From Archangium sp. (GTDB taxonomy: Bacteria > Myxococcota > Myxococcia > Myxococcales > Myxococcaceae), in the NCBI GenBank assembly GCA_047600485.1, contig JASGKS010000001.1, positions 6,784,259-6,848,258 on the forward strand: DNA of 64,000 bases, given 5' to 3'. The notes beneath the pieces were generated by a model. The model did no database searches. It saw only the letters and a program-made list of their open reading frames with translations, and had not been told where the DNA came from. Position numbers and translations under genes: made by a program. Below, piece after piece: positions 3,392 to 60,260 of the stretch. Position 1 is the stretch's first letter, and the number at the start of each line of letters is the position of its first letter.

Positions 3392-3982
3392 TTATCGACC
3401 CGCGACGTCCGACGCGGCCGCTTTGCGAGCGGTTGCGACGAAGGTCTGCGAATCGGTCGTCAGCGACGCGATGTCGGCTTCGAGCGAACCGACGAAGGTG
3501 CGCGCCGAGGCCGAGGTGATGCCGCTCGAGCCGCAGAACGCCGCGTACTTCTCCATCACCGCCGAGTAGCGGTTGATGCCCGCCACGTAGGTCTCCATCA
3601 GCGGCGGCACCGCCTTCATCGGCTCCAGGTATTCCTTCGCGAGCGACTGCTGGTACTGCGCTTCCTTCGCCTCGCGTTCGGCCGAAGACGAGTGCTTGAG
3701 CTGATGCGCGGCCTCGATGCGCTGGCGGACGCTCTCGAGCGAGCGGCGGACCGATTCGGCTTCGCGGCGGCCCTTCTCGAGCTGACGGCGGGAACTCTCG
3801 AGGCGAGCGAGCGCTCCTTCGAACTCGTACTGGAGCTTCCCGTTCTTGCACTGGGCGAAGTGTTCCTGCGCGGTCTTGAGTGAAGCGGCCGCGGCGGTCA
3901 GCGCAGGACCTTCAGCGCGCGCGGCGAAAGAGGAGAGGACGAACAGCGACACGACCAGGGTGCTGCGAGGTGAGGAGAGCAT
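3392..3982 (-). CDS. hypothetical secreted protein
   Basis: Met at MLSSPRSTLVVSLFVLSSFAARAEG gives a classic signal peptide. The rest is mostly coiled-coil or alpha-helical. Confidence 0.4.
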   Translation of the reverse strand: MLSSPRSTLVVSLFVLSSFAARAEGPALTAAAASLKTAQEHFAQCKNGKLQYEFEGALARLESSRRQLEKGRREAESVRRSLESVRQRIEAAHQLKHSSSAEREAKEAQYQQSLAKEYLEPMKAVPPLMETYVAGINRYSAVMEKYAAFCGSSGITSASARTFVGSLEADIASLTTDSQTFVATARKAAASDVAGR

Positions 3983-4101
3983 GGGTGGCTCGCGCACATG
4001 CAGCCGCAGTGCCGAGGTTGATCAGCCGCAGAAATCGACTCGACCCTTCACCCGACCCGCTCCGCGTTTCGCGAGGAGCGGGAGTTCAGCCACAGCTGTG
4101 T

Positions 4102-5322
4102 TCAGCCGCCCGCGTAGAGCGTGACGTCGGTCGCCGCGGCGAAGCTCATCTTGTACGCCTCGTCCCAGTTCGGGTGGCGCACCATGAGGTGTCCGTCGCT
4201 CAACAACGTCTGCTTCCAGTTTCGGCGCTGCGTCCCGGGCCGCAGCAGCTGCTCCTCGACCACCCAGTCACCGAACCGCCGCAGGTACTCGCGCAATCCC
4301 GTGATGCGGGTGATGCGGCCCTGGCCGAGCGCGCGCTTGAAGATGATTCCCGCGTTGTATTTGCGCCTGGTGCTCGCCTCGAACGAGCGCCAGCAGGCGA
4401 CGCGCGCCCACTCGCGGAACAGGTCGATGTCGCCGGTGTAGTTCATCTGGTCGACGAGGTGCGCCCCGCCCGGCCGGCACCCAATCTCGCCGAACACCGC
4501 CTCGCCCTTGTTGGTGAGGTACCACTCCATGTGGGTGAAGCCGTCGCCCATCTCGAGCGCCTTCAAGACCTTGCGGCCCAGCGTGATGCCCGCGCGGAGT
4601 TTGGGCTGCTCGATGTCGCGCACCGTGATGATGACCGGCGAAATCCACTCTTCGCTGCGGGCGATGAGGGGCTTGGGCAGGTACGCGGCGACGTTTTCGT
4701 ACGCCGGCTTCCCGCCGATGGAGACCGTGTCGTAGGTGAATTCCTCGCCGTCGATGTATTCCTCGCAGCTGGCGACCTCGACGTGCCGCATGGCCGCGAT
4801 GGCCGATTCGAGCTCGGGCTTGCTGCTCACCTTGTAGGTGTCGGCGCTGCCTGCTCCGGCGATGGGCTTCAAGATGAGCGGGTAGCCAATGCGCTCGGCG
4901 GCCTCGCGAATCTCGCGCTCGGTCTTCACCTTGAACGCGTAGGGCACGCGCAACCCGGCCGCCTTCACGCGGTCCTTCATCAGCTGCTTGTCGCGAAAGC
5001 CGGTGACCTGGTCGACCGTCATGCCCGGCAGGCCAAAACGCTCACGCAGTCTGGCGGCGAGGATGACGAGCGGCTCCCAGTTGCTGAGCACGCGGTCGAT
5101 TTGGCGGCCGCGCAGCCACGCCGAGACGCGCTTGATGACGTCGTTCTCGTCCATGATGCGCGGCACCTGCAGGTAATCGGCGAGGTGCGGCTTCAACGAC
5201 TGCGGGAGCCCCCGGCGCGGCGTATCGCCCACACCGAAGACGTTCGCGCCGACCTCCGCGAGGCCGCGCGTGTACTGCTGCATTTCGGGGGGGTAACTCG
5301 GCGCCAGGAAGACGACGTTCAT
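4102..5322 (-). CDS. ATP-grasp domain protein (carboxylate-amine ligase-like), paralogue 1
   Basis: 406 aa. Central ATP-grasp signature (GYPLILKPIAGAGSADTYKV...EEYIDGEEFTYDT...GFTHMEWYL...FGEIGCRPGG). Its start overlaps the stop of the upstream gene at 5319-5322 (ATGA). Confidence 0.8.
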   Translation of the reverse strand: MNVVFLAPSYPPEMQQYTRGLAEVGANVFGVGDTPRRGLPQSLKPHLADYLQVPRIMDENDVIKRVSAWLRGRQIDRVLSNWEPLVILAARLRERFGLPGMTVDQVTGFRDKQLMKDRVKAAGLRVPYAFKVKTEREIREAAERIGYPLILKPIAGAGSADTYKVSSKPELESAIAAMRHVEVASCEEYIDGEEFTYDTVSIGGKPAYENVAAYLPKPLIARSEEWISPVIITVRDIEQPKLRAGITLGRKVLKALEMGDGFTHMEWYLTNKGEAVFGEIGCRPGGAHLVDQMNYTGDIDLFREWARVACWRSFEASTRRKYNAGIIFKRALGQGRITRITGLREYLRRFGDWVVEEQLLRPGTQRRNWKQTLLSDGHLMVRHPNWDEAYKMSFAAATDVTLYAGG

Positions 5323-6185
5323 TGGGGCGCGACGTTACCCTCGCCCGCTTCCAGCTCCTTCAACATCTCGTCGTACGCCTTCTGGTCTTCCTCGCTCATC
5401 GGCTCGGGCGGAGGCGCCGGCATCGGCCCCTGCCCCAACGACAGCACCATCTCGTTGCTCGTCGCGATGGAGTCGCGAGCGATGCGCGACACCGAACCTT
5501 CGGGCCCCAGACAGTCACCACGATGCACCAGATAGAAATTGCCCTTGTCGTCACGCACCACGGCCGCGGGTTTCGCGTCCCCACTCATCACCGCGCGCAA
5601 CGTGAACGAGCCCTGCGCCGCCTTCATCGACTTGCACGGCGGCACGTTCGGCAGCATCGGCATCAGGCGGCCGCGCGCTTCGTCGCCCTTCGCGGTGAGT
5701 TCGGTCGCCAGCTGCGCGATGAAATCGACGGGAAGGTTCGACCAGCGCACGGTGAGCGTGCCGTCGCTTCCATTCGGCACCTGCAGCTCGCGGTCTTCGA
5801 GCAGCGCCGCGACTTCGTCGAACGTCGCGCCGGCAGTCGTGAGGTTGAGCTTCTTCCCTTTGCTCTTCATCGGCGCGCGCTTCGCCAACTTCTCTTCGGT
5901 GTCGACCAGCACCAGATTGCCGCCGCGTCTCGTCGCGAGCCCCGCGCGCTTCACGACGTCGTCGAACACGAGGTCCCACGGTTTGTCCTTCACCTCGAGG
6001 TCGAACGCCGTGCGCCGCGAGCGATCGAGCACCACGACGTTGAGATGCGCGACCGTGCCGAGCAGCGTCAGCACCTGCTCCGCGGTGACGCCGCGCAGCG
6101 AGAGCGTGACGGGCTTGCCCTTGCCCGAAGGTGTCGGCGGAGCGGCGAGCAACAGGGTCGCGGCGACGAGTGAAGCGAACATCAC
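5319..6185 (-). CDS. hypothetical secreted protein
   Basis: Signal peptide MMFASLVAATLLLAAPPTPSG. Translationally coupled to the ATP-grasp gene and lies downstream of the hybrid kinase. Confidence 0.45.
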   Translation of the reverse strand: MMFASLVAATLLLAAPPTPSGKGKPVTLSLRGVTAEQVLTLLGTVAHLNVVVLDRSRRTAFDLEVKDKPWDLVFDDVVKRAGLATRRGGNLVLVDTEEKLAKRAPMKSKGKKLNLTTAGATFDEVAALLEDRELQVPNGSDGTLTVRWSNLPVDFIAQLATELTAKGDEARGRLMPMLPNVPPCKSMKAAQGSFTLRAVMSGDAKPAAVVRDDKGNFYLVHRGDCLGPEGSVSRIARDSIATSNEMVLSLGQGPMPAPPPEPMSEEDQKAYDEMLKELEAGEGNVAPQ

Positions 6186-6221
6186 CGCACGGTGACACCT
6201 TCGTCCTGACTCGTCACGAAG

Positions 6222-7943
6222 TCAGGCCGCGGCGGCGCTCGGCTCGACGGAGTTCAACGCCTCGTGCAGATGATCGACCCGCAGCGGCTTGGTCAGCACG
6301 CGGTTCATGCCGGAGCGCAGACACTCCGCCTGGTCTTCGAACGAAACGGCGGCAGTGAGCGCGAAGATGGGAATCGTCAGGCCGCGCGCGCGCAGTTGCC
6401 GTGTGGCCTCGTAGCCGTCCATCACGGGCATGTGGCAGTCCATCAGCACGAGGTCGAACGGTCGCTGCTGAACGACGCGCAGCGCCTCGGCGCCGTCGTT
6501 GGCCACCGTGACCTCGTGCCCCAGGCGCTGCAGCAGCCGCTGCGCGACGAGCTGATTCACGGTGTTGTCGTCGACCACCAGAATCGAGAGCCGCGCGGTG
6601 CGCTGGGCGTTCGAAGCGCGAGGCGTCGGGCTCTCACACACCACCACTGGCAACAGCACGGTGAAGGTGCTGCCTGCTCCGGGAGTGCTCGCGATGCGCA
6701 GCTCTCCGCCCATCGCGTCAATGAGCCGCCGCGTGATGACGAGGCCGAGCCCTGTGCCGCCATGACGACGCGTGGTCGAGGCGTCGGCTTGCACGAACGG
6801 AGCTCCGATGCGCGCCAGCACTTCGGGCGTCATGCCCTCGCCGGTGTCCTTCACGTCGAGCCGCACGCGCTCACCTTCCATCGTGAGCAGCAGCTGAATC
6901 AGACCGCCCTCGGTGAACTTCACCGCGTTGCCGACGAGGTTGAGGACGATTTGGCGCAGACGCGTCGGGTCGCCGCGCAACCACTCCGGCACCTCGGGCG
7001 CGATGCGCAGCGCGAGGGTGTTGCGGCGTTGCTCGGCGCTCACGCGGAACAGCTCGACCACCGAGGTGGCTTCGGCAGCGACCGACAGTGGAATCGACTC
7101 GAGCGAGAGACGGCCAGCTTCGATCTTCGAGAAGTCGAGCACGTCGTCGATGACCGCGAGCAACGTGTCGGCGCTGGTGCGCACGATGCGCAGACCTTCT
7201 TCGAGGCGCTCGGGGCGACGCTCGTCGGCGAGCGCGGCGGCCATGCCGATGAGCCCGTTGAGCGGCGTGCGCAGCTCGTGGCTGATGGTCGCGAGGAACT
7301 GGTTCTTGGCGAGCGTGGCGCGCTCTGATTCCTGCTGCGCGGCGATGAGCTTCAAGTTCTTCGAGCGCAGCGCCTCGATGGCCTTCTCGGTTTCGATTTC
7401 GTACGCGCGCGCCACGAGGAAGATGGCGGTGCACACGAAGAAGACGGTGGTGATGCGGCGATTGAGCGGGTGGGCCTCGAGCGCGGCAGCGGGAACGACG
7501 TCGCGGTCCATCAACATCAACACCGCGGTCGAGACGACGATGGCCGCGACCAGCGTGGCCCAGCCGGCCTTGCGCCCTGACGTCGCCAACGCCAGCAGCG
7601 GAGCGACCGGCATCCACATCAGCGAGCCGATGCCTTCACGCCCGGCGGCGAGCGCCATCGCTCCACACACACCGATGCCGATGGTGATGACGATGGAGAC
7701 GATGAGCGCGCGCGACACGCCCCGGCGATGACCGATGAGCGCGAGCATGCACACCAACAACATGCCCAGCGTGCCACCCGCGGCGAAGGCGAGGCCCTGG
7801 AACGCCTGCACCACGAGTGACGCCGCACACACCACACACAACGTCAGCAGCAAGGCGATGAGCTTGCGCCCGCGGCTGTCCGCTTCATGAGGCGGCAAGA
7901 AGGTGTTCCACACCCATTGCCCAAGGCGACCTGGGAACGACAC
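6222..7943 (-). CDS. hybrid sensor histidine kinase/response regulator (membrane N-terminus, HisKA, HATPase_c, REC)
   Basis: H-box ISHELRTPLNGLIGM, G-boxes GGTGLGLVITRRL...GAGSTF, and a C-terminal receiver (ILVVDDNTVNQLV...DLVLMDCHMPVMDG). Four to five N-terminal TM helices. Confidence 0.9.
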   Translation of the reverse strand: MSFPGRLGQWVWNTFLPPHEADSRGRKLIALLLTLCVVCAASLVVQAFQGLAFAAGGTLGMLLVCMLALIGHRRGVSRALIVSIVITIGIGVCGAMALAAGREGIGSLMWMPVAPLLALATSGRKAGWATLVAAIVVSTAVLMLMDRDVVPAAALEAHPLNRRITTVFFVCTAIFLVARAYEIETEKAIEALRSKNLKLIAAQQESERATLAKNQFLATISHELRTPLNGLIGMAAALADERRPERLEEGLRIVRTSADTLLAVIDDVLDFSKIEAGRLSLESIPLSVAAEATSVVELFRVSAEQRRNTLALRIAPEVPEWLRGDPTRLRQIVLNLVGNAVKFTEGGLIQLLLTMEGERVRLDVKDTGEGMTPEVLARIGAPFVQADASTTRRHGGTGLGLVITRRLIDAMGGELRIASTPGAGSTFTVLLPVVVCESPTPRASNAQRTARLSILVVDDNTVNQLVAQRLLQRLGHEVTVANDGAEALRVVQQRPFDLVLMDCHMPVMDGYEATRQLRARGLTIPIFALTAAVSFEDQAECLRSGMNRVLTKPLRVDHLHEALNSVEPSAAAA

Positions 7944-7982
7944 GTGGATCAGCTAACGCGCCACGTGCGGCGCGAACTCGTG

Positions 7983-9467
7983 TCAGTTCTCTGACGCGGG
8001 CCGCTCGACGACGAGCGTCAGCAGACTGCCGTTGGCAGCGGCAGCGGCGGCTCCGTTGGCGAGGGACGCGATGTCTGACTTCCACTCGCAGCGCGCGGGG
8101 GCAAGGTCGATGAGCGTGAACGGCGAGGGGCTTTGCGGCGGCGAGAAGGTCTTCACCGGTTGATCAACCCGCGCCAGCTCGACGCCTCCGCTGATCAACG
8201 TCGCCACGTCGACGGGCTTCGTCTCGTCGTCGAAGTGCAGCTTCACCGGCGCGTAGCTTTCGGTGTCGGCAAAGAGCGCGAAGAACGGGCGCAGGAGTGC
8301 GGGGAAGTCTTTCGGCATGACGCGCGGCGGGCCCGCGCCCACGAGAATGACGGCCGAGTACCCGCGCGCGTGCGCCGCGGAGAACGCGCAGAGCAACTGC
8401 TCTCGTGTGAGCGAGGCTTCCAGCGCGATGCCGAGTGAAGAATTGGGGCCGCCCATTTCGATGTCGGCGTGCCGGTCGATCGCCTCGGCGATTTCGGCGC
8501 AGCTCCTGCCGCTCAAGTACTGCGGGTAGCCGTACCCCTCGGGACGCGAGAGACCCGCGAGCCGCACGAGTGGATCCGTGGTGGCGAGCACGCTGTTCAA
8601 GTCAGCCGAGCTCAGCGTTCGCTCGGTGAGGAGCAGCACGCCGCGAAACCCGACCGCGGTGACGAGCAGCGCAGCCGCCGCGAGAATGCCGGCGCGACGT
8701 TCGCGCTGCGCGACGACCACTCCACCGACCACCGCGAGGCCGATGGCCGCGAGCGTGCCGAGGGCGCCGAAGCGATCGAAGCGAGACGCTTCCAGCGCCA
8801 CCTGGAAGAGGACTTCGGCTTTCTGATCAGGCGACACCATGGCGACCGCGCGGAAGCCCTCGCGCAGCTCGACCGCGGTCAGCAGCGAACCGCCCATCGA
8901 CACCGTGAGCGCCAGGAAGCCGAGCGCGCCGAGCATGGCGGCCAGACGATTCGGACCACCGAGGACCGCGAGGCCTTGACCGAGCGCGACAGACAAGCAC
9001 GCCATCAGACAGACGCTCGACGCGAGCAATTGCAGCGAGAGCAACTCGCTGATGCTCCCCGCGAGAATCGTCGCGCGATCGGCCGGAGAGACCGCGCTCA
9101 TCGCCGCCATCACCGCGTCGAGGCTGCTCTTCGCGCCGAGGAACGAGACGAGCAGCACCAGCAGCCACACCAGGCCGCTCGCGGTCGCGGGGAAGGTGCC
9201 GCGTCGCGCTCCGAGGAACGCCACGACGGCCGACGCGATGGTGGCGACGATGCCCGCGAGCAGCACGCCGTAGCTGAAGCCGCCGCCCTCGACGAACATC
9301 TCGGCCAGGCCGCTCAAGCCTCCGCGACGCAGCAAGAAGAAGAGCAGCGCGAGCGCGAAGGGCATCGGTCCGACCATCAACAGCGCGCTCCCCACCGCGA
9401 CCCACGCTGGCGCAGGTTTCGCGCTCGCGTCGTTCGGCTGCTGCGCGGAGAGCATTGGTTCGATCAT
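7983..9467 (-). CDS. hypothetical polytopic membrane protein
   Basis: Many hydrophobic helices in the N-terminal two thirds, then a soluble C-terminal domain. Divergent from ATP-grasp paralogue 2. Confidence 0.4.
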   Translation of the reverse strand: MIEPMLSAQQPNDASAKPAPAWVAVGSALLMVGPMPFALALLFFLLRRGGLSGLAEMFVEGGGFSYGVLLAGIVATIASAVVAFLGARRGTFPATASGLVWLLVLLVSFLGAKSSLDAVMAAMSAVSPADRATILAGSISELLSLQLLASSVCLMACLSVALGQGLAVLGGPNRLAAMLGALGFLALTVSMGGSLLTAVELREGFRAVAMVSPDQKAEVLFQVALEASRFDRFGALGTLAAIGLAVVGGVVVAQRERRAGILAAAALLVTAVGFRGVLLLTERTLSSADLNSVLATTDPLVRLAGLSRPEGYGYPQYLSGRSCAEIAEAIDRHADIEMGGPNSSLGIALEASLTREQLLCAFSAAHARGYSAVILVGAGPPRVMPKDFPALLRPFFALFADTESYAPVKLHFDDETKPVDVATLISGGVELARVDQPVKTFSPPQSPSPFTLIDLAPARCEWKSDIASLANGAAAAAANGSLLTLVVERPASEN

Positions 9468-9493
9468 GCGCGCACTGTAGTAGTCACCGCGGC

Positions 9494-10706
9494 ATGCGCA
9501 CCGTCGTCTTCGTCGTGCCCTACCCCGCCGAAGCTTCGATTCGCTTCGCCCGCGCGTTCTCGGAATTGAAGGCGGTGCGGCTCATCGGCCTCGTGCAGAA
9601 GCCGCCCACTGGCGCCGCGGCGAAACCGTTCGCGAACTTCGTGAAGGTGCAGGACGCGTTCGATTCGCGGCAGATCATCGAAGGCTGCGAGAAGGTGCGA
9701 AAGAAGTACGGCGGGCTTCATCAAATCGTCGGCGTGCTCGAGCCGCTGCAGGTGCCGCTCGCCGAGGCGCGCGCGCACTTCAAGATTCCCGGGACCGACG
9801 CGAAGACCGCCGATTCTGTTTCGCGACAAGGGCCGCATGAAGGACGCGCTGCGCGCTTCGGGTCTTCCGTGCGCGCGCCACAAGGTCATCACCTCGCTGG
9901 CCGACGCGATTTCGTTCGTGCAGCAGGTCGGCTTCCCCATCGTCATCAAGCCGCCCGCGGGCGCCGGCACCAAGGCGACGTGGCGCATCAAGAACCTCGA
10001 AGAGCTGCAGGGCGTCATCGCCGCGATTCATCCGCGGCCCGACAACCCCACGCTCGGCGAAGAGTTCCTCAAAGGGCGCGAGTACTGCTTCGACACCATC
10101 ACGGTGCGCGGCAAGGTGTTGTTCGAGAACGTGAGCCGCTACTACCCGGGCCCGCTCGAGGTGATCGAGAACCCGTGGATCCAGTGGGCGGTGGTGCAGC
10201 CGCGGCAGCTGACTCCGGACCTCGACGACGCGCGCGCGATGGGGCGGCAGGCCATCAAGGCGCTCGGGCTCGCGACCGGCTTCACGCACATGGAATGGTT
10301 CCGTCGCGACGACGGCTCACTGGCCATCGGTGAAATCGCCGCGCGTCCTCCGGGCGCCAACTTCGTCGAGATGATGGGCTTCGGGCACGACGCCGACATG
10401 TACCGGGCGTGGGCGCGCGCCATCACCGACAACGCGTTCGATGGTCCCTTCGAGCGGAAATACGCGGTCGGCTGCGCGTACCTGCGCGGCATCGGTCGCG
10501 GTCGCGTGCAGCGCGTGAGTGGAGTCGCCGAAGCCAACGCGCGCGTCGGCAAGCTGGCGGTGAAGTCGAAGTTGCCGAAGGTGGGCCAGCCGAAGTCGGA
10601 CCACTACGAGGGCGAGGGCTACGTCATCGTGCGGCACCCCGACACCGACGTGGTGAAGGCGGCGGTGAAGACCATCATCGAGACCATTCGCATCGAGTAC
10701 GCCTGA
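9494..10706 (+). pseudogene. ATP-grasp domain protein, paralogue 2, interrupted by a frameshift near nt 9811-9818
   Basis: The N-terminal 106 aa (MRTVVFVVPYPAE...KIPGTDAKTAD) are in the 9455 frame and the remaining ~298 aa in the 9837 frame. Both halves align colinearly with paralogue 1 (about 40% identity; e.g. FRDKGRMKDALRASGL matches FRDKQLMKDRVKAAGL). Rejoining needs a 1-nt shift inside gccgattctgtttcgcgac. Confidence 0.75.
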
Positions 10707-10707
10707 C

Positions 10708-11613
10708 ATGCCGACACCGAAGATTCCGAGCAGCATCGAAGGCGTGGTGGAGATCGAAGTGTTCCGCAGCATGGAGCACCGCTACTGGCTCCTCATCGAG
10801 ATTCCCCACGGAGCGACGCGCCGGTCCGAATACGACGCCGTCGCGCGCAAGCTGAAGAGCCCGCTGCCCGCGCAGCTCGAGCACTTCTTCTACGTCAACA
10901 CCGACATCGGCACGCCCGAGGGCGCGAGGTGGATCGGCAAGACGCTCGGAGCGCATCGCGTGAACGTGGTGGTGGCGCGCTGTCTGGTGCCGCGCACGTT
11001 CATCGACACCAATCGCGTGCTCGGCGGCCAGGCGGGTGAAGGCCTCACCGGCTCGATGCCGACGTACATCACCGATTCGAACGACGCGACGTACCTGCAG
11101 GGGCTCCACACGCAGTACCACCGCGTGGTCGACGGGCTGTACCAGGAGATTTGCCGCAACTCCGACGGGCTCGCGCTGCAGCTGCACTCGTACGCGCCGC
11201 GCTCGGTGGGCATCGAGACGGTCGACGCGAACATCGTGAAGGCGCTCCACGTGGCGTACGAGCCGGCGAACTATTCGCGCTGGCCCGAGCGGCCCGCGGT
11301 CGACCTCATCTGCTCGACGAAGGACGGAAAGTTTCACGCGGCGCCGCGACTGGTGTCGGCCGCGGTGCAGGCGTGGAAGGAAGCCGGCGTCACCGCGACC
11401 GAGAACGGCACGTACCACCTGCACCCGGTGACGATGGGCATGACCTACGCGCAGGCGTTCCCGCATCAGGTGGTGTGCGTCGAGATGAACCGCGGCCTCA
11501 TCGCCGACCCGTTCGTGCCGTTCGGCGAGTCGCCCATCAGCGAGGCGAAGGTCGGGCAGCTCGTCGCTCCGCTCGCGCGCGTGCTGCATTCGGCGCTGTC
11601 GGAGCCGGTGTGA
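10708..11613 (+). CDS. putative N-formylglutamate amidohydrolase (FGase)-family zinc hydrolase
   Basis: 301 aa. Begins 2 nt after the ATP-grasp stop. The FGase-like assignment is from memory of that family and is uncertain. Confidence 0.4.
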   Translation: MPTPKIPSSIEGVVEIEVFRSMEHRYWLLIEIPHGATRRSEYDAVARKLKSPLPAQLEHFFYVNTDIGTPEGARWIGKTLGAHRVNVVVARCLVPRTFIDTNRVLGGQAGEGLTGSMPTYITDSNDATYLQGLHTQYHRVVDGLYQEICRNSDGLALQLHSYAPRSVGIETVDANIVKALHVAYEPANYSRWPERPAVDLICSTKDGKFHAAPRLVSAAVQAWKEAGVTATENGTYHLHPVTMGMTYAQAFPHQVVCVEMNRGLIADPFVPFGESPISEAKVGQLVAPLARVLHSALSEPV

Positions 11614-12356
11614 AGCAGGCGCTCGTCGCGTTGTTGTTCGTTTCGGGTTGCGCGAGCTCGACACGCTTCGCGCGGCCCGATGGCCTCGAGGTCATCACCA
11701 TCACGCACGACAGCACCAACGTGCACGTCGTGAAGAAGGACGCCGCGGTCTTTCTGTTCGACAGCGGGTACGAGAAGAACGGCCCGCAGCTCGAGGCCGA
11801 CCTGCGCGCGCTGGGCATCGACCCTGCTTCGGTGAAGGCCGTGGTGGTGAGCCACGCGCACGCCGACCACGCCGGTGCTGCGCGTTTCTTTCACACGCAT
11901 TTTGGAACGCCGGTGGTGCTGGGCTCGGGTGACGAGCCGATGTTCCTCGCGGGCCAGAACGAGCCGCTGTGTCCGCAGGGGCTCATCGCCAACCTGCGCT
12001 GGCGGGAAGATCAGAGCGGCCACTACACGGGCTCGAATGCTGACGTCATCGTGACTGGTGAGCTCGACTTGAAGCCGCTGACGGGAATCGACGCGCGCGC
12101 GGTGCTGGTGCCGGGTCACACGCGCGGGAGCGTGGTGGTGGTCGCGGGCGACGTGCTGCTGGTGGGCGATTTGTTTCGCGGCAGCATCGTCGGCTCAGGC
12201 GCGGAGACGCACCTGTTCATGTGCGACCTCGAAGAGAACAAGCGGAACATCGCGCGCGTGATGAAGGAGATCGCGCCGCAAGCGAAGCAGGTCTTCACCG
12301 GTCACTTCGGGCCCGTCACGCCAGAATCGGTCCGCGAACACTTCGAAGTGAAATGA
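11610..12356 (+). CDS. MBL-fold metallo-hydrolase lipoprotein
   Basis: The GTG start overlaps the upstream stop (GTGTGA). Lipoprotein signal LVALLFVSGCA and metallo-beta-lactamase motif VVSHAHADH. Confidence 0.7.
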   Translation: MKQALVALLFVSGCASSTRFARPDGLEVITITHDSTNVHVVKKDAAVFLFDSGYEKNGPQLEADLRALGIDPASVKAVVVSHAHADHAGAARFFHTHFGTPVVLGSGDEPMFLAGQNEPLCPQGLIANLRWREDQSGHYTGSNADVIVTGELDLKPLTGIDARAVLVPGHTRGSVVVVAGDVLLVGDLFRGSIVGSGAETHLFMCDLEENKRNIARVMKEIAPQAKQVFTGHFGPVTPESVREHFEVK

Positions 12357-12363
12357 ACAAACC

Positions 12364-12402
12364 CCCCTCTCCCGCGAGGGAGAGGGTCGGGGTGAGGGTG
12401 AA
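12364..12402. repeat. GC-rich palindromic REP-like element (copy A)
   Basis: ccctctcccgcgagggagagggtcggggtgagggtg. It is the inverse of copy B about 90 bp away, so the pair can form a long stem. Confidence 0.7.
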
Positions 12403-12493
12403 ACGCGAAGCACGGCGGCCGTGCTGATCCTCGACACGAGTGATCACCGAGCCTCGAGCGTGCGTGCCCTCTCAGGCGCAGCGTCGTGCGGCT

Positions 12494-12533
12494 TTCACCC
12501 TCACCCTGACCCTCTCCCTCGCGGGAGAGGGGA
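12494..12533. repeat. GC-rich palindromic REP-like element (copy B)
   Basis: tcaccctcaccctgaccctctccctcgcgggagaggg. It is the reverse complement of copy A. Confidence 0.7.
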
Positions 12534-12536
12534 GCT

Positions 12537-14018
12537 TTATTCCTCGGGCTCTTTCGGCGGCGGAGTACCGCGCTCTTCATCGAGCGCCTTCAACGCCGCG
12601 TCAGCCTTCTCGAGCTCAGTCGCCGCTTTCTCCATCTCACGCTCCAGCGGAGCACGCTTCGCCTCGAGCGCCGACGTGTCACCGCGCGCCGACTCAATCT
12701 TCGCCTGCAGCTTCTCGAGCTTCGCGTTGATGGAGTCGTAGCGCGCCTGCGCCTTCGCCACGCGCTTCTGCAACCCGACCCGCTCACCATCGACGAGCTT
12801 CACGTCGACCGTGGTGGGCTTCGGCACGTTCTTGAGCGTCTTCGTCAACGTGGTGTGGTTCTCGGCGCTGAAGCTCAGCTCATGCTTCTTCTTCGGCTCG
12901 AGCCACACGTCGAGCGGCGTGCTCCCGACCGCGAGCCCATCGACGGTGACCGCCGCCACCGGAGTCGACTTGAGCGTCACCTTCGTGCCCTTCACCAACG
13001 TGAACTGCAGTTCGTTCTCTCCGGCCGAAAGCAGCTTCCGCTCGCTCGCCGCCTGATACCCGTCAAGCGTGACCACCACGTCGGTGACGTCAGCGTCGAG
13101 CAGACTCGTGGTGCCCGGCGTCTTCGCGAGCACTTCCTTCCCACCGACCAACACACGCGCGCCCTCGGGCTCCGAGGTGACCTTCACCGTCGCGCCGCGC
13201 TTCAGCGTGAAGCTCAACGTGAAGTGCTCGTTCGCGTTCGGCGTGCGCTCGACGGAATCAGGGAAGAAGCCCGCCTGCTCGACGCGAATGACGTTTCGCT
13301 CGGTGGCGTTGAGCGGCGTGTCGAGCGGGCTCGTGCCTCGCTTCTCGCCGTTGACGAACACCGTCGCGCCCGGCGGCTCGGTGGTGATGTTCGAGAGCGG
13401 GTGGAGCCCGAGCGGATCATCCTTCCCCGTGGGCACCGACTTCACCGGCGCTTCCTTCGGCGGCGGCTTGCCGGCCTGACACGCGGTGCGCGTGGTCTCG
13501 AGCCACTTCGCGAGCGAGCGCTGCTGCAGGTCGAACGCGAGTTCCTTGCGATCTGAATCGTCGAGCGTCTTCGCGTTCTGCACGATGCACGCGCACACCT
13601 CTTTATCCGTGCCTGCCGCGGTGCAGCGGCGCATGAAGCCCTCTTCGAAGAGCACGCGGCGGTCTTCAGCGCTCAACGGAGCGGTCATCGAGCGCGTGAT
13701 GGCTCCCGCGAACAGCACCACTCCGATTCCCGCGACGAACGCGAGGACCTGCAGAATCGCCAGAATCAGCGCCACCCAGCGCGAGCCGGTGCCGAGGTCT
13801 TCGTCCTTCCAGATGAACCAGCCGAAGAGCCCGGGAAAAATCGCGGCGCCGAACGCGCGCAACCAGTCCGCTCCGCCCGCGCGGAAAATCCACACCAGGA
13901 TGCCGACCCAGATGAGCGAGCAGCAGCTGCTCCCGCCGGTGCGTTGGCGGTCAGCCGCGAGCGCGACGGTGCTGCCGAGCACCACGAAAGCGATGAACCA
14001 CCACGGAGTGCGCTTCAT
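12537..14018 (-). CDS. PEGA-domain membrane protein with a C-terminal coiled coil
   Basis: N-terminal TM helices. Repeated PEGA-like motifs (TTEPPGATVFVNGEKRGTSPL and VTSEPEGARVLVGGKEV). Start taken as MKRTPWW, which overlaps the stop of the upstream lipoprotein gene (ATGA). Confidence 0.65.
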   Translation of the reverse strand: MKRTPWWFIAFVVLGSTVALAADRQRTGGSSCCSLIWVGILVWIFRAGGADWLRAFGAAIFPGLFGWFIWKDEDLGTGSRWVALILAILQVLAFVAGIGVVLFAGAITRSMTAPLSAEDRRVLFEEGFMRRCTAAGTDKEVCACIVQNAKTLDDSDRKELAFDLQQRSLAKWLETTRTACQAGKPPPKEAPVKSVPTGKDDPLGLHPLSNITTEPPGATVFVNGEKRGTSPLDTPLNATERNVIRVEQAGFFPDSVERTPNANEHFTLSFTLKRGATVKVTSEPEGARVLVGGKEVLAKTPGTTSLLDADVTDVVVTLDGYQAASERKLLSAGENELQFTLVKGTKVTLKSTPVAAVTVDGLAVGSTPLDVWLEPKKKHELSFSAENHTTLTKTLKNVPKPTTVDVKLVDGERVGLQKRVAKAQARYDSINAKLEKLQAKIESARGDTSALEAKRAPLEREMEKAATELEKADAALKALDEERGTPPPKEPEE

Positions 14019-14464
14019 CGTTGGCTCTGACAGCGCGTGACTATTGAGGAGAATTCGACAGGGAGTGGTCGGCCCTGCTGGTAGCGCTCGACCACGTCCC
14101 ACAGCGCGTCGCCTTCGAAGCCGTCGTACAGCCCTTCGATGACGCACACGCAGGCCTTCTTGCCTTCGCACTGCGCGACCGAGAGCGGCTTCAGACACGA
14201 CGCGCCGCGCCGGCGAATCAGCACCTGCATCTCTTCACCCGTGAAGAAGTTCGCGTCGGACGCGAGCGCACGCAGCTCGCCTTCGGTGAAGTCGCCCGTG
14301 ATGGCAGGAATGAGGCAACCGCAGTCGAGCTTGCTCTCGAGGCCGGTCTTGCCCTTCTTGCCTTCGTCGCAGCTGCGCTCGAGCGCGCGCACGATGGCCG
14401 GTCGTCCGGTGAGGGAATCGCAGCCCGACAGGATGATCAGAGTCAGCGCCGCCCAACGCTGCAT
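14015..14464 (-). CDS. Cys-rich lipoprotein, hypothetical
   Basis: Lipobox LIILSGCDS, about 10 Cys residues. Translationally coupled to the PEGA gene. Confidence 0.45.
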   Translation of the reverse strand: MQRWAALTLIILSGCDSLTGRPAIVRALERSCDEGKKGKTGLESKLDCGCLIPAITGDFTEGELRALASDANFFTGEEMQVLIRRRGASCLKPLSVAQCEGKKACVCVIEGLYDGFEGDALWDVVERYQQGRPLPVEFSSIVTRCQSQR

Positions 14465-14574
14465 GCGCGGGAGCGTACGTCAGGGTTGCGCAACTTGCGC
14501 AGGTCATGGCTCTGTCAGCGCCCAGGGACGACGCGAGGATGCGGGGGCGCGGCGGTTGCTCCTGCTCGGGCGGC

Positions 14575-15291
14575 ATGAACCCAACCATGCTGCTGCTGGC
14601 TTTTCATCTCGTGAGTGGAGCGACTTCACCGCAACCGACGTGCAGCGAAGAAGAATGGTCACGCGAAAATGAAGACATCTGCGCGGAGAACCGGGCGCTC
14701 AAAGTCTACGGCCGCACGCACGGCGAGGTCTCGTTCGGTTACCTCGGCCAATGGAGCAACGAGAGCAACCGCGCGCTCGAATTGAAGCCCTCGCAGGCGG
14801 GCGACCCTCCGTTCGCCGGGAGCATCACCGAGCCGTTCCTCGGCAATCCGTTCTCGGGGACGTTGTTGTCGGGCGCGACGCTCGAGAGTCGCGTGGTCTA
14901 CGACGGCATTCGCATCACCGCGGGTCTGCGCTTTCCGTTCATGAACTACCGGCCGAGTGACACCGCGCAGGTGGTCAACGTCGGTGGCGTGCCGCGCGAG
15001 GTGTTGGTGCGCTCCGTGTCGCTGTGGGACGTGCGCACCGGCATCGGGTTCGAGTTCGCGACGCGTCGGGTGACTCCGTACTTCGACGTGCTCGGTGATT
15101 TTCAGAACATCAGCACGCAGTTGGTCGTCGATGGCCAGCCGGCGAAATACCAGGGCACCGCGTTCTCGCTCGGCGGTCGGCTGGGCATGCGAATTCAGAT
15201 GCAGCATGCGTTCATCGCGTTGAGCGCGGAAGCGACGGCGCTCGGGCCGCTGCGTGTCGGTGGTTCGGCTCAGCTCGGCTTCGCGTTCTGA
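14575..15291 (+). CDS. hypothetical secreted beta-rich protein, possibly outer-membrane
   Basis: Signal peptide MNPTMLLLAFHLVSGATS. Alternating beta-strand-like pattern and a C-terminal aromatic residue. Confidence 0.4.
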   Translation: MNPTMLLLAFHLVSGATSPQPTCSEEEWSRENEDICAENRALKVYGRTHGEVSFGYLGQWSNESNRALELKPSQAGDPPFAGSITEPFLGNPFSGTLLSGATLESRVVYDGIRITAGLRFPFMNYRPSDTAQVVNVGGVPREVLVRSVSLWDVRTGIGFEFATRRVTPYFDVLGDFQNISTQLVVDGQPAKYQGTAFSLGGRLGMRIQMQHAFIALSAEATALGPLRVGGSAQLGFAF

Positions 15292-15298
15292 TCAGCGC

Positions 15299-15727
15299 TC
15301 ACTCGAGATCCCACGAGCGTTGGTCACTGATCAACGCCTCGAGTGCGGTCGGCACCGTCGCGAAGAGCGGCGACGGGAGCGCGTCGAGCGAGAACCACGC
15401 CCACGACTCGACCTTGTCCGGTTCCTTCACCGTCGGCTCACCGCTCGCCCAGTCGGCCGCGAACGCGAGATCGACGTAGTGCCTGGGCGCGTACTGCACG
15501 GTGTTGAGCACGCGAAGGAATCGCACGTTGGCGATTTCGCAACCGGTCTCCTCGAGCACTTCACGCGCCGCGCACGCCGCGAACGATTCGAGGTGCTCGA
15601 GGTGGCCGCCGGGTGAGGCGTACTCGCCTGCTCCGTGCGAGCCGCGGCGTTTTCCGAGCAGCAGCTTGCCGTCCTTGAAGACGAACACTCCGATGCCGAC
15701 GCGTGGACGTTCCTGCATGACGGTCAT
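15299..15727 (-). CDS. NUDIX hydrolase
   Basis: Nudix box GKRRGSHGAGEYASPGGHLEHLESFAACAAREVLEETG. The start overlaps the cyclase stop (ATGA). Confidence 0.8.
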   Translation of the reverse strand: MTVMQERPRVGIGVFVFKDGKLLLGKRRGSHGAGEYASPGGHLEHLESFAACAAREVLEETGCEIANVRFLRVLNTVQYAPRHYVDLAFAADWASGEPTVKEPDKVESWAWFSLDALPSPLFATVPTALEALISDQRSWDLE

Positions 15728-16890
15728 TGTGGCTCGAAGAGCTCGGTTTGGCCGGTGATGCCCTTCAGTTCGAACGCACCGACGGACTTCGCGGGCGTCT
15801 CCAGCACGTTGGCCACCGGAGCGCTCACCAGCACCTGCTTCCCCAACTTGCCGGTCATGCTCTCGATGCGACTGGCGAGATTCACCGCGGGCCCGATGGC
15901 CGTGAAGTCGAGCCGCGAGCTGCCGCCGATGTTGCCGTACGCGACCTCGCCCAGATGCAACGCGACGCCGAACGCGAGCGGACCCTCTTTCCGTTCTCCA
16001 CGTTTCACGTTCAACGCCGTCAACGCATCGAACGCACGACGGGTGGCCTTCACCGCGTTCTGCGCGACACCCTTCGCGTCGCCCTTCACGGGGAAAATCG
16101 CGAGCAGCCCGTCGCCGATGAACTTCAGCACCTGGCCGCCGTGGCTCTCGATGGCCGGCACCTGGCACTCGAAGAACTCGTTCAGCACCGCGATGATTTC
16201 TTTCGGCTGCCGCTCTCCGCTCAACGACGTGAAGCCGCGCAGGTCGGAGAACCAGATGACGCAATCGATGAGGTCGGTGTCGCCGCGCTGAATGCGACCC
16301 TTCAAGATGCGCTCGCCAGCGTCGTTGCCGACGTACGCGTTGAGCAAGTTCACCGCGGTGCGCATCAGCGCCAGCGTTTCGGCGACCCGAGAGAGCGGCC
16401 GCACCACGTGCTTGATGGAGTCGAGCTGATCAGCCGTGAAGCCTCCCGGCGCGCGCGTCGCGAAGCTGATGGCGTGACAGGTGCCGCCCATGAAGTGCAG
16501 CGGACAAAACAAGATGTCGGTGTAGCCCTGCGTCTTCAGCTCGAGCAGGTCGGGCGAGCTCACCTTCTCGTCGAGCACGTGCCGCACGTACTGACCGTCT
16601 TCGAACACGCGCGCGATGAAGCTGCGCTTGAAAATCTCCGACTGCAGAAATTCCCACGACGCCTCACCGACCTGCGTCTTGCCGTCGCTGGCGTTCCACA
16701 CGAAGCGACGGCCCATGATGGAAGGGTGAAGCGTGCGCACGAACGCGGCCATGCGCTCGACGGGGACGCCCGCGGCACGCAGCTCAGGACCCATGCGCTC
16801 CAGCACCGCCATGGGAGTGGGCGCACCGGGCGCTCCATCGACCAGCCAATCGAAGATCGCCTGCACCGAAGCCAGGGGCATGGCGCGCAT
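15724..16890 (-). CDS. class III adenylate/guanylate cyclase with an N-terminal sensor-like domain
   Basis: CHD signature (VIWFSDLRGFTSL...LKFIGDGLLAIFP...GVALHLGEVAYGNIGG...DFTAIGPAVNLASRIE). The start is uncertain: the frame is open to 17037 and the first Met options are at about 16890 or 16881. Confidence 0.75.
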   Translation of the reverse strand: MRAMPLASVQAIFDWLVDGAPGAPTPMAVLERMGPELRAAGVPVERMAAFVRTLHPSIMGRRFVWNASDGKTQVGEASWEFLQSEIFKRSFIARVFEDGQYVRHVLDEKVSSPDLLELKTQGYTDILFCPLHFMGGTCHAISFATRAPGGFTADQLDSIKHVVRPLSRVAETLALMRTAVNLLNAYVGNDAGERILKGRIQRGDTDLIDCVIWFSDLRGFTSLSGERQPKEIIAVLNEFFECQVPAIESHGGQVLKFIGDGLLAIFPVKGDAKGVAQNAVKATRRAFDALTALNVKRGERKEGPLAFGVALHLGEVAYGNIGGSSRLDFTAIGPAVNLASRIESMTGKLGKQVLVSAPVANVLETPAKSVGAFELKGITGQTELFEPQ

Positions 16891-17473
16891 GATGCCAGTC
16901 CTGCTTTCGTGGGTCGCTGTGAGTCCGAGCGGGGGACCCCAACAGCTCGTGTACGACGTCGGCGTCGAGAGCCTCTTCCGCGGCATCGGAGAGAAGCTCA
17001 CGCCCGAGCTGCGGCTGCGCGTTCGCAAGCTCGGCATCGACCTCGATCAAAAGCTCCTGCCCGGCTACCCGAAAGACGTCTGGGTGCGCGTCGTCGACGA
17101 GGTGGCGCGCGAGTTCAGCGCGAACAGCGACCTCGCTGCGGCGCGCAAAGAATTGGGGCACGCCATTTCGCGTGGCTTCGCTGATTCGACGATGGGCAAG
17201 CTGATGGCGCCCGGAGTGCGGCTGATGGGTGTGCGGCGCATGCTGCTGCGACTCCCGAAGAGCCTCACCATGAGCAACAACTTCATGCGCGTCGCCGTCA
17301 CGCAGACCGGCTCGAACCTCGTGCGCGTCGAGATGAACGAGCCCGTGCCGTCGTCGGAATTTCTCGCGGGCGTGATCGAAGCCATCATCACGTACTCGGG
17401 TGGAAAGTCGTCGACCATTACGTGGGCCGCGGAAGGGCCGTTGACGGTGTTCAGCGTGGCCTGGGCCGACTGA
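16880..17473 (+). CDS. TIGR02265/DUF2378-family protein (expanded in myxobacteria)
   Basis: About 197 aa. Family membership recalled from the GIGEKLTPELRLRVRKLGIDLDQ... pattern. The start options overlap the divergent cyclase start. Confidence 0.45.
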   Translation: MARMMPVLLSWVAVSPSGGPQQLVYDVGVESLFRGIGEKLTPELRLRVRKLGIDLDQKLLPGYPKDVWVRVVDEVAREFSANSDLAAARKELGHAISRGFADSTMGKLMAPGVRLMGVRRMLLRLPKSLTMSNNFMRVAVTQTGSNLVRVEMNEPVPSSEFLAGVIEAIITYSGGKSSTITWAAEGPLTVFSVAWAD

Positions 17474-57223: not shown

Positions 57224-57371
57224 CGCGCGAACCTAGCCGCGCGAGCCGCGCTCACCCACGGAATCGAGAGCGGCTGATCCGCCGAACGCCCGGTTTTTTC
57301 CGATGTGCGCTTCGAGCGCCACTACGCTGCCGCGCCGGAACTTCAACGCCGTCTCAGACGTCGAGGACCTC

Positions 57372-60260
57372 ATGCGCTTGCTCCTGATCAGCCTGTTGCT
57401 GTCACTCCCCGCAGTGGCCGCTGAAGATGCGCCGGTCTCGCTCACCGCGAGCGACGGCACGGGCCTGAAGCTCACCAAATTCCAGGCGCGCGGCGTGGTG
57501 TCCGACCCGCTGGCCTTCACCGAGCTCACCCTCACCTTCCAGAACCCGCTCGACCGCGTGCTCGAAGGTCAGTTCAAGGTGACGCTGCCTCCGGGCGCGA
57601 CGGTGAGCCGCTTCGCGATGAAGCTCGATGGCCGCTGGCAGGAAGGCGAAGTCGTCGAGCGTCAGGCCGCGCGTCGCGCGTACGAAGATTTCCTCCACCG
57701 CCGGCAGGACCCCGCGCTGCTCGAGCAGAGCGGCGGCAACGAGTTCACCGCGAAGGTGTTCCCCATTCCCGCGAAGGGCGTGAAGGAAGTCGTCATCTCG
57801 TACTCGCACGACCTGGTGCAGAAGAACTCGACGTATGTGTTGCCTTTGAAGGGCATGCCGGAAATCGGCGAGCTCGACGTGAAGGTGACGGGCGTCGATG
57901 GCGACGGCGTGCTGAGCAAGAAGTCGTTCGTTCCCAACGCTGACTTCGTCGGAGTGCCGAAGCGCAATCAGCTCGGCGTTCGTTCCGGTGACCTCGTCGC
58001 GGCGCGCGTGATTCCCGTCGACGCCACCGATGCCGATGCGCTCACCAACTTCACGCTGCTCGTCGATTCGTCGGGCTCGCGCGCGCTGGGGTGGAAGGAG
58101 CAGACGCAGCTGGTGCAGAAGCTGCTCGCCGCGGTGCCGACCGCGACGGTGAACGTGCTGGCGTTCGACCAGGAAGTCGCTGCGATTTATTCGGGCGTCG
58201 CGTCGGGCTTCGGTGACGCGCAGGCGAAGACGCTGCGTGACCGCAAGGCGCTCGGCGCGTCGAACATCGAGCTGGCGTTGAAGGCGGTGGCTGCCAAGCC
58301 GACTCCGCGCGTGGTGGTGCTGGCCGACGGCGTGTTCACCGCCGGAGTCATCGAAGGTCCGAACCTCACGGCGCAGGTGCTGAAGCTGAAAGCAGCCGGC
58401 GTGAAGCGGCTCGACGCCATCGCGGTCGGTGGTCTGCGTGACGAAGGTGCGCTCGCGCGAATCGCGCAGGGCTCGCTCGAGCGCGACGGCGCGGTGCTCG
58501 ATGGCTCCTTGCCGGCGACTGAGCTCGCGCGTCGTCTCGGGCTGTCGACGAAATCGAAGCTCGAGGTGAAGCTCGATGGAGCGACCGCAGTGTGGCCTCG
58601 CATCGTGAGCGGCATTCAGGCCGGCGACGCGGTGCTGGTGTACGCGCAGCTGCCGGCGAACGCTCCGTTCAAGGGCACCATCGGGGGCAAGGCGATGGCG
58701 GTCGGTGACGGTCAGCTCGCTTCCATCGAGCGGCCGTTGCTCGAGCGCGCGTGGGCGAAGGCGCGCATCGATTCGCTGCAGGACCAGCTGGCGAACGCCG
58801 ACGGTGCTCCGCAGCGCGAGGCGTTGAAGAAGGAAATCGTTCAGGTCTCGACGCAGAACCGCGTGCTGTCGTCGCTCACCGCGTTGCTCGTGCTCGAGAC
58901 CGAGAATGACTACGCGCGCTTCAACATCGATCGCAAAGCGCTGACCGACATCCTCGTGGTGGAGAACGGAGTGGTGAAGCGCAGCAAGCGCACGGCCGAC
59001 ACCATCGTCGTCGCGCGCGTCGAGAAGCTGCCTCCGCCGAAGAAGCCCGAGCCCGTCGCGAAGGAAGCGAAGGCCGAGGCGAAGAAGATGAAGCGTGACG
59101 AGAGCGACGACTTCAAGTCGTCCGACGGCAAAGAAGAAGAAGCCGAGAAGAACATGCCCGACGCGAAGCCGGCGCCGATGGAAGTCGCGGCCAACACCAC
59201 GCCGACCGTCGAGCGTCCGCCGCCTTCGCCGGCTCCTGCTCCTGCGCCGCCGCCTCCTCCTCCGCCCGCGACGCAGGCGCCTGAAGCCTCGCGACGCTCG
59301 ATGGACTCCGCGGGCCCGAGCGGTGGTCAGGCGATGCAGAAGGGCAGCGACCCGTACACCGGCAAGTTCAAGGAAGTGATGGTCGCGCTCGAGACCGACA
59401 AGAAGAAGGGCGTGGCGCTCGCGACCGGTTGGCACGAAGAGCAGCCCGGCGACATTCTCGCGCTCGTCGCGATGGGCACCGCGCTCGAGGCGGCCGGTGA
59501 CCTCGCCACCGCCGCGCGCGCGTACGGCAGCATCATCGACTTGTTCCCCGCGCGTGCGGACCTGCGTCGCTTCGCGGGCGTTCGTCTCGAGACCATCGCG
59601 GCGGCGCTCGAGCTCGCCATCGATTCGTTCGCGAAGGCGGCGGAGCAGCGAGCCGACCACCCCGCGTCGCACCGCCTGCTCGCGTTCGCGTTGCTGCGCG
59701 CGGGAAAGCCGGAGAAGGCGTTCGAAGCCATCAGCAAGGGCATCGCGCAGCGTTACCCGGAGGGCCGCTTCTCGGGCGTGGACCGCATTCTGCGCGAGGA
59801 CGCGGGCCTCATCGCCGCCGCGTGGATCAAGGCCGAGCCGTCACGCAAAGGTGAAATCGAAGGGAAGCTGAAGGCGGCCGGCGGTTGGGCCGAGAGCGAG
59901 CCGTCGCTGCGCTTCGTGTTGAACTGGGAGACCGACGCGAACGACGTCGACTTCCACATCACCGACGCCAGGGGCGGGCACGCGTACTACTCGCAGAAGG
60001 TGCTCGCGAGCGGTGGCGAGCTCTACGCCGACGTGACGACCGGCTACGGCCCGGAGTGCTTCACCATTCGGCTCCCGAAGGGCCGTCGCGCGGCGCCGTA
60101 CACGCTGCAGGCGCACTACTACTCCATCGGTCCGATGGGCGCGGGCATGGGCAAGCTGGAGATCATCGAGCACGACGGCAAGGGCGGGCTCACGTTCGAG
60201 CAGCGTCCGTACGTGGTGATGGTGAACCAGGCGTACGTCGATCTCGGCGTCGTGAAATGA
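57372..60260 (+). CDS. secreted VIT-domain + von Willebrand factor A-domain protein with a TPR-like region and a C-terminal DUF2135-like domain
   Basis: Signal peptide MRLLLISLLLSLPAVAAE. VIT-like N-terminus, vWA MIDAS motif (LLVDSSGS), a Pro-rich linker, and a C-terminal beta domain. Confidence 0.7.
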   Translation: MRLLLISLLLSLPAVAAEDAPVSLTASDGTGLKLTKFQARGVVSDPLAFTELTLTFQNPLDRVLEGQFKVTLPPGATVSRFAMKLDGRWQEGEVVERQAARRAYEDFLHRRQDPALLEQSGGNEFTAKVFPIPAKGVKEVVISYSHDLVQKNSTYVLPLKGMPEIGELDVKVTGVDGDGVLSKKSFVPNADFVGVPKRNQLGVRSGDLVAARVIPVDATDADALTNFTLLVDSSGSRALGWKEQTQLVQKLLAAVPTATVNVLAFDQEVAAIYSGVASGFGDAQAKTLRDRKALGASNIELALKAVAAKPTPRVVVLADGVFTAGVIEGPNLTAQVLKLKAAGVKRLDAIAVGGLRDEGALARIAQGSLERDGAVLDGSLPATELARRLGLSTKSKLEVKLDGATAVWPRIVSGIQAGDAVLVYAQLPANAPFKGTIGGKAMAVGDGQLASIERPLLERAWAKARIDSLQDQLANADGAPQREALKKEIVQVSTQNRVLSSLTALLVLETENDYARFNIDRKALTDILVVENGVVKRSKRTADTIVVARVEKLPPPKKPEPVAKEAKAEAKKMKRDESDDFKSSDGKEEEAEKNMPDAKPAPMEVAANTTPTVERPPPSPAPAPAPPPPPPPATQAPEASRRSMDSAGPSGGQAMQKGSDPYTGKFKEVMVALETDKKKGVALATGWHEEQPGDILALVAMGTALEAAGDLATAARAYGSIIDLFPARADLRRFAGVRLETIAAALELAIDSFAKAAEQRADHPASHRLLAFALLRAGKPEKAFEAISKGIAQRYPEGRFSGVDRILREDAGLIAAAWIKAEPSRKGEIEGKLKAAGGWAESEPSLRFVLNWETDANDVDFHITDARGGHAYYSQKVLASGGELYADVTTGYGPECFTIRLPKGRRAAPYTLQAHYYSIGPMGAGMGKLEIIEHDGKGGLTFEQRPYVVMVNQAYVDLGVVK

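Follow-up and report, generated by a model that had tools for sequence, protein, structure and literature searches.

The 64,000-nucleotide stretch of Archangium sp. contig JASGKS010000001.1 analysed here (the window; base composition 65–69% G+C) carries on its forward strand three tightly packed genes: an ATP-grasp gene resembling L-amino acid ligases (9494–10706), an intact gene for a 301-residue metallo-amidohydrolase with the N-formylglutamate amidohydrolase (FGase, PF05013) fold (10708–11613, MFT3712087.1), and a gene with a GTG start for a putative lipoprotein of the metallo-beta-lactamase (MBL) fold (11610–12356, 248 residues, MFT3712088.1). The ligase reading frame is interrupted by one extra T. 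The original prediction, made from the letters alone, had described these three genes and a frame switch in the first of them, and both are confirmed by translation, by an alignment with eight orthologous DNAs and by a codon-usage scan. Its description of the packing needs correcting in detail: the gap between ligase and FGase gene is 1 nt (the c at 10707) and not 2 nt, and the FGase stop and the MBL start overlap by the 4 nt GTGA inside GTGTGA. The ligase and FGase genes are translationally coupled.

Read in frame 1 from the ATG at 9494, the ligase gene encodes a good ATP-grasp N-terminus (MRTVVF...GTDAKTAD, codons 1–107, 9494–9814), to which the N-termini of orthologues are 75–93% identical, and then arginine-rich nonsense up to a stop at 10331–10333. 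Sensible reading in frame 2 begins with ...LFRDKGRMKDAL... and extends through codons 108–403 (9816–10706) to the stop at 10704–10706; this part matches PF02222 and, in profile searches of the PDB, the ligases RizA, BL00235 and BacD. Uncorrected translation would thus give 107 native followed by 172 out-of-frame residues. Aligned with the eight orthologous DNAs, the gene shows a single inserted column, present in the window only (gcc gaT Tctg ttt against GCC GAY CTN TTY). The surplus T belongs to the TT dinucleotide at 9814–9815 (GAT-T-CTG, where orthologues have GAY/CTN), within the interval 9811–9818 in which the switch had been placed.

Deletion of this T yields a protein of 403 residues, the commonest length among orthologues, with the conserved motif TADLFRDK. 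A search with the repaired protein returned thousands of homologues, up to 92–93% identical among the matches listed. All 120 homologues listed are uninterrupted open reading frames (ORFs); about 110 are full-length (401–416 residues, mostly 403–404), and across the junction homologues read GTDPKTADLFRDK. The shorter ones derive for the most part from short contigs, whose ends seem to have cut them off.

The log-likelihood scan of codon usage, run in six frames over the 64 kb, independently picks the ligase site as the sole intragenic frame switch. Frame changes near 62.2–62.8 kb and 29.6–30.4 kb were considered as second breaks and rejected as ordinary gene boundaries. Gene lengths in the window agree with those of the syntenic relative L007, and the large genes sampled in the window have full-length domain matches.

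In public annotation the broken gene is represented only by the stretch from the ATG at 9837 to 10706, as the 289-residue protein MFT3712086.1, which is 100% identical to that stretch. The run of accessions over 9455–10706 goes from MFT3712084, a membrane protein, to MFT3712086, the ligase fragment, with 085 between them. Because 085 is unassigned in this comparison, the N-terminal fragment is probably annotated as a separate protein, and the record would then hold two fragments rather than one flagged frameshifted pseudogene.

The repaired site itself reads GATC (GCC GAT CTG), a tetranucleotide that is depleted in the window, with 110 occurrences observed against 264 expected from trinucleotide frequencies (an observed-to-expected ratio of 0.42); the same ratio for CTAG is 0.16. 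Avoidance of a restriction or methylation motif could account for the depletion of GATC, and if GATC is methylated this might matter for nanopore base-calling.

We lean slightly towards an error of the consensus: the chances are about even that the extra T is an assembly indel, with the ligase probably intact in the organism, and a real null mutation of very recent date comes close behind in likelihood. The lean derives from residual indel rates in the consensus of long-read metagenome-assembled genomes (MAGs). The source is a MAG, in a single contig of 9,422,076 bp that points to a long-read assembly, and indels of one base that persist in the sequence are the error typical of such assemblies. 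The coding sequence on either side of the break looks like that of a working gene. At columns invariant in 31 close orthologues the window ligase has no private substitution, where other sequences have 0–7, and its dN/dS against L007 is 0.135 overall, with 0.06 ahead of the shift and 0.17 behind it, compared with about 0.18 for two orthologue–orthologue pairs and 0.17–0.22 for the neighbouring FGase gene. Since the ligase gives no sign of relaxed constraint, the lesion, if real, must be very young. An old, decaying pseudogene was rejected on the same grounds, there being a single lesion, a dN/dS like that of the controls and unchanged invariant columns.

Several points weigh against an assembly indel and apply equally in favour of a true loss of function, or of a variant dominant in the sampled population, that left the FGase-like, MBL and partner ligase genes intact; we hold this second reading at a little under an even chance. 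The insertion lies outside any long homopolymer, where long-read consensus indels concentrate, and a simple duplication of T to TT is just as characteristic of a true error in replication. The assembly looks clean and not generally error-ridden, with no other indel or frame break in the 64 kb. The absence of further decay is also what a young event would leave, and the cluster has been in evolutionary flux within this clade, with genes inserted between the two ligases and a large accessory cluster that the window does not have. On the other hand, a recent loss has to be reconciled with purifying selection on the ligase that equals that of its orthologues up to the present, with the retention of the ligase pair across Myxococcota, which makes a loss unusual, and with the single-contig MAG consensus from which the base is read. 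Sequence by itself does not separate the artefact from the mutation. Exact look-ups of the repaired 403-residue and the broken 279-residue products both gave no match, and a look-up of the exact FGase product, made for an independent sequence of the same species, gave no contig. Two scans of metagenomes with patterns over the site, an exact and a degenerate one that each permitted 0 or 1 extra base, returned either nothing or two distant intact orthologues, and thus no contig from the same species. The nearest contigs, L087, L007 and L088, have 84–88% DNA identity to the window, and L087, the only near relative in the JGI data, stops 193 codons from the ligase end and does not reach the site.

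Two further explanations would leave the gene functional as it stands. Programmed +1 ribosomal frameshifting, or transcriptional slippage, restoring the full-length ligase is extremely improbable, and the original prediction was right to rank it last. Nothing speaks for it beyond the perfect conservation of both halves and a shift of one nucleotide. The shift occurs in none of the eight orthologous DNAs, and the homologous proteins listed are all single ORFs. The site, GCC GAT TCT GTT, has no slippery codon or homopolymeric run, no in-frame stop and no rare-codon pause, the 0 frame staying open for 172 further codons. The 111 nt around and downstream of it are less structured than shuffled controls (z = +2.3), and Rfam has no match at the site. 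The likeness to the programmed +1 frameshift of prfB ends with the fact that a +1 shift would restore the ligase frame, whereas the in-frame stop, the upstream Shine-Dalgarno-like stimulator, the slippery codon and the conservation of that system are all missing. Transcriptional slippage was likewise rejected, since the site offers only TT where a homopolymeric run of about 7 or more A or T is required. In practice programmed frameshifting is rejected, and the break counts as an ordinary insertion of a single base, not a programmed shift. The other explanation is a functional split gene, in which the 289-residue C-terminal ORF (ATG at 9837) would act alone or together with the N-terminal fragment. 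Although the NCBI record annotates 9837–10706 as a protein and this ORF keeps the central and C-terminal ATP-grasp domains, it lacks residues 1–114, including invariant residues of the N-domain and the FRDK motif, the N-terminal fragment would bear 172 out-of-frame residues, and no split homologue occurs among the 120 proteins listed. We regard it as only marginally less improbable than recoding.

Once repaired, the ligase is a member of the ATP-grasp superfamily, scoring 43.2 bits against PF02222 (gathering score 27) and retaining the invariant ATP-grasp columns. Its match to the C-terminal domain family LAL_C2 is weak, at 17.7 bits where the gathering score is 29.4. The closest solved structures are L-amino acid ligases: RizA (4wd3, E 4.5e-24), BL00235 (3vot, 6e-18) and BacD/YwfE (3vmm, about 1e-15), which are likewise three-domain proteins of about 400 residues. 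These enzymes form an acyl-phosphate intermediate and then an amide bond, and the same chemistry is predicted for the window ligase. The relation is a remote one, with no NCBIfam equivalog near its cut-off (29 against 850 for the BacD equivalog). We take the enzyme as putatively of the L-amino-acid-ligase type.

A second gene of this type lies on the reverse strand at 4102–5322 (406 residues, MFT3712081.1). Its best PDB match is also RizA (7.5e-21), and RizA, BL00235 and BacD are its closest solved structures as well. The original prediction treated this gene as an intact paralogue of the broken one; a recent or redundant copy does not agree with the data, as the two proteins are 31% identical and the second is a distinct family member. 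To place both genes in context, we compared 83 non-redundant loci drawn from species-representative genomes and metagenome contigs. A partner-type ligase lies upstream and divergent in 71 of the 83, in 57 of them at no more than 150 bp. The ligase at 4102–5322 is thus a conserved divergent partner across Myxococcota and not a spare copy. The arrangement sets the window type apart from the bac and riz antibiotic gene clusters: its genes form a divergent pair that is conserved and is joined by as many as two more paralogues.

The assignment of the second gene of the group to the FGase family, put forward in the original prediction, holds. The protein scores 35.3 bits against PF05013 (gathering score 28.9), with residues 28–265 aligned to profile positions 3–218 of 219. 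Its AlphaFold model has a pLDDT of 91.6, and the best Foldseek matches in the PDB are the FGase-family structures 2q7s and 2odf (E 3e-11 to 5e-08, TM 0.50–0.66; the E-value of 3e-11 belongs to 2q7s and the TM of up to 0.66 to 2odf). Behind them rank M14 carboxypeptidases, the poly-gamma-glutamate hydrolases YndL and phage PghP, and the succinylglutamate desuccinylase AstE. Residues invariant in 31 homologues comprise PHG (33–35), N64-T65-D66, D100-x-N102-R103, H160, E259 and R262, and S161 is nearly so. The motifs PHG, D, DxNR, HS and E are shared with the FGase family, and the pattern presumably fits an active metallo-amidohydrolase. Some results temper this assignment: identity to the FGase structures is about 16–17%, their TM-scores to the model are moderate, a sequence-level search of the PDB gave no match even at E ≤ 1, and NCBIfam gave none at E ≤ 0.01.

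A true HutG was rejected for this gene, there being no equivalog-level NCBIfam match and no hut-type Pfam family in the flanking ORFs scanned (3392–9467 and 12537–14198; small ORFs at 14015–17473 lie outside the scan). HutG of histidine utilisation is found among hut genes, whereas the FGase-like gene sits beside ATP-grasp ligases, and because of this setting N-formylglutamate is unlikely to be its substrate.

The third gene encodes a protein with a Lactamase_B domain (PF00753, 72 bits against 22.7) and the metal motif HxHxDH, in the form SHAHADHAG (HAHADH), followed later by PGH and TGH. Assignment to the subclass B3 metallo-beta-lactamases was tried and rejected (NF033105, 60 bits against a cut-off of 240). 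The N-terminus, VKQALVALLFVSGC, contains the lipobox LFVSGC, which by eye fits [LVI][ASTVI][GAS]C and suggests a putative exported lipoprotein.

Conservation of the neighbourhood separates these genes from one another. The FGase gene follows the ligase by 3–42 nt in each of the 13 loci that extend far enough and have a ligase of at least 66% identity; in none of 62 more distant loci does it lie beside the ligase. As a conserved order, ligase then FGase is restricted to the Archangium-like clade. The association also outlasts rearrangement: in the Polyangia MAG L091 the FGase gene lies within a reshuffled form of the larger cluster described below. The pairing of ligase and amidohydrolase that the original prediction had emphasised is therefore well founded, and its triad is not: only the window, L007 and L087 have the MBL gene. 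A conserved three-gene operon of ligase, FGase and MBL genes was rejected accordingly, with ligase and FGase gene together in 13 loci of one clade and the MBL gene in three loci only.

In more distant Myxococcota, a recurrent cluster adjoins the ligase pair. A third ATP-grasp paralogue, an S51-like protein, an enterochelin-esterase-like protein, a 414-residue protein, another esterase-like protein and a GCS2+CBS ligase make it up; an AstE/AspA hydrolase and a GlgA-like glycosyltransferase sometimes join them, and in some loci an FGase-type hydrolase accompanies the AstE/AspA enzyme or takes its place. The two esterase-family proteins belong to PF00756; the 414-residue protein has no Pfam family and shows weak ATP-grasp similarity, and is probably a divergent ATP-grasp protein. 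The S51-like protein belongs to the cyanophycinase family. Loci with the cluster, which carry a third or fourth ATP-grasp paralogue, include L005 (10001–21215), L091, L013, L015, L020, L025, L035 and L061; L013 and L015 have both the larger cluster and the FGase gene. The larger cluster is absent throughout the 64-kb window. In L005, a canonical set of cyanophycin synthetase, cyanophycinase and amidohydrolase lies 3 kb from the cluster. Among the carriers, L039, L057, L061 and L065 are assigned to Xanthomonadales-type MAGs and L081 to Planctomycetota, which points to horizontal transfer or else to mis-binning. Taken globally, amide ligases with amidohydrolases are the robust theme of these loci, and the three-gene unit is not.

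The established mechanisms of ATP-grasp enzymes and of the FGase/carboxypeptidase fold allow a scheme for the locus to be proposed. The ligase would activate a carboxylate with ATP as an acyl-phosphate and couple it to an amine, most likely with amino acids as the partners, to form an amide bond. The FGase-fold enzyme would hydrolyse a small N-acyl or peptide-like amide, either the ligase product, in a recycling step, or a precursor, by deblocking the substrate. The ligase would operate in the context of the second, divergent ligase at 4102–5322, and the MBL lipoprotein may be a lineage-specific addition in the species group of the window only.

The scheme resembles the 'add and remove' modules of a ligase and a peptidase that Iyer et al. 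are said to have described in 2009 by comparative genomics, such as RimK with an AstE-like peptidase, or LysX/LysK of the LysW pathway. Both link an ATP-grasp amide ligase genetically to an amidohydrolase of the carboxypeptidase fold, and in other Myxococcota the hydrolases of the cluster include, in place of FGase, an AstE/AspA enzyme or an S51-like peptidase. The resemblance does not extend to a carrier or target protein of the LysW or S6 kind, which was not identified here, and the ligases are of the Lal type and not the RimK type. A full-text search of the literature for ATP-grasp and N-formylglutamate amidohydrolase in combination turned up no paper. We offer as a tentative idea, itself rather unlikely to hold in full, that the divergent pair of Lal-like ATP-grasp ligases found across Myxococcota, with its variable accessories, makes and recycles an undescribed peptide-like metabolite or storage polymer.

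The main import of the extra T concerns annotation: the public record splits a conserved 403-residue enzyme and lists a 289-residue fragment as a protein, and whether the organism possesses the ligase hinges on one base. If the T is real, an Archangium-like lineage would have been caught losing one step. As there is no evidence of recoding, the frameshift has no bearing on translation biology; the gene is a new member of known enzyme families and the event is ordinary. What retains interest is the uncharacterised ligase/hydrolase neighbourhood of the Myxococcota rather than the frameshift. No characterised member of the Lal-type ligase pair surfaced in the searches made here, and for this reason the pair, conserved in Myxococcota with changing sets of amidohydrolases, is a reasonable target for enzyme discovery.

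In the window, the partner ligase and the frameshifted ligase are separated by inserted genes (5319–9467, reverse strand): a 288-residue gene product, a hybrid histidine kinase/response regulator at 6222–7943, and a 494-residue multi-pass membrane protein at 7983–9467 with no Pfam family. Counterparts of the membrane protein, 30–34% identical, occupy the same position in L001–L004, L007 and L010. Its gene diverges from the ligase gene with start codons 26 bp apart, so that the divergent promoters must overlap coding sequence. The protein is possibly an accessory to the ligase, through a functional link that is putative.

Behind the MBL gene, the convergent gap at 12359–12537 holds two inverted copies of a 56-nt repeat (12359–12414 and 12482–12537), 86% complementary to each other. 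Each copy contains the hairpin CCCTCTCCC-N4-GGGAGAGGG, followed by TCGGGGTGAGGGTGA. A third copy of the hairpin is found at 29250–29271, making three matches where none is expected by chance, and a scan for terminator-like sites gave 6 against 1.8 expected. The repeats are probably terminators for both converging transcription units, and they have the appearance of a dispersed intergenic element of the REP kind with a second role in termination. A sub-threshold Rfam match to mir-2545 at 12368–12528 was dismissed as a reading of the long inverted repeat and not a microRNA.

Farther along the window, the reverse strand at 30932–33106 encodes a protein of 724 residues with the shoulder domain of the major vault protein (PF11978, 1.6e-31), a bacterial homologue of that protein, and a VIT+VWA protein is encoded at 57237–60260.

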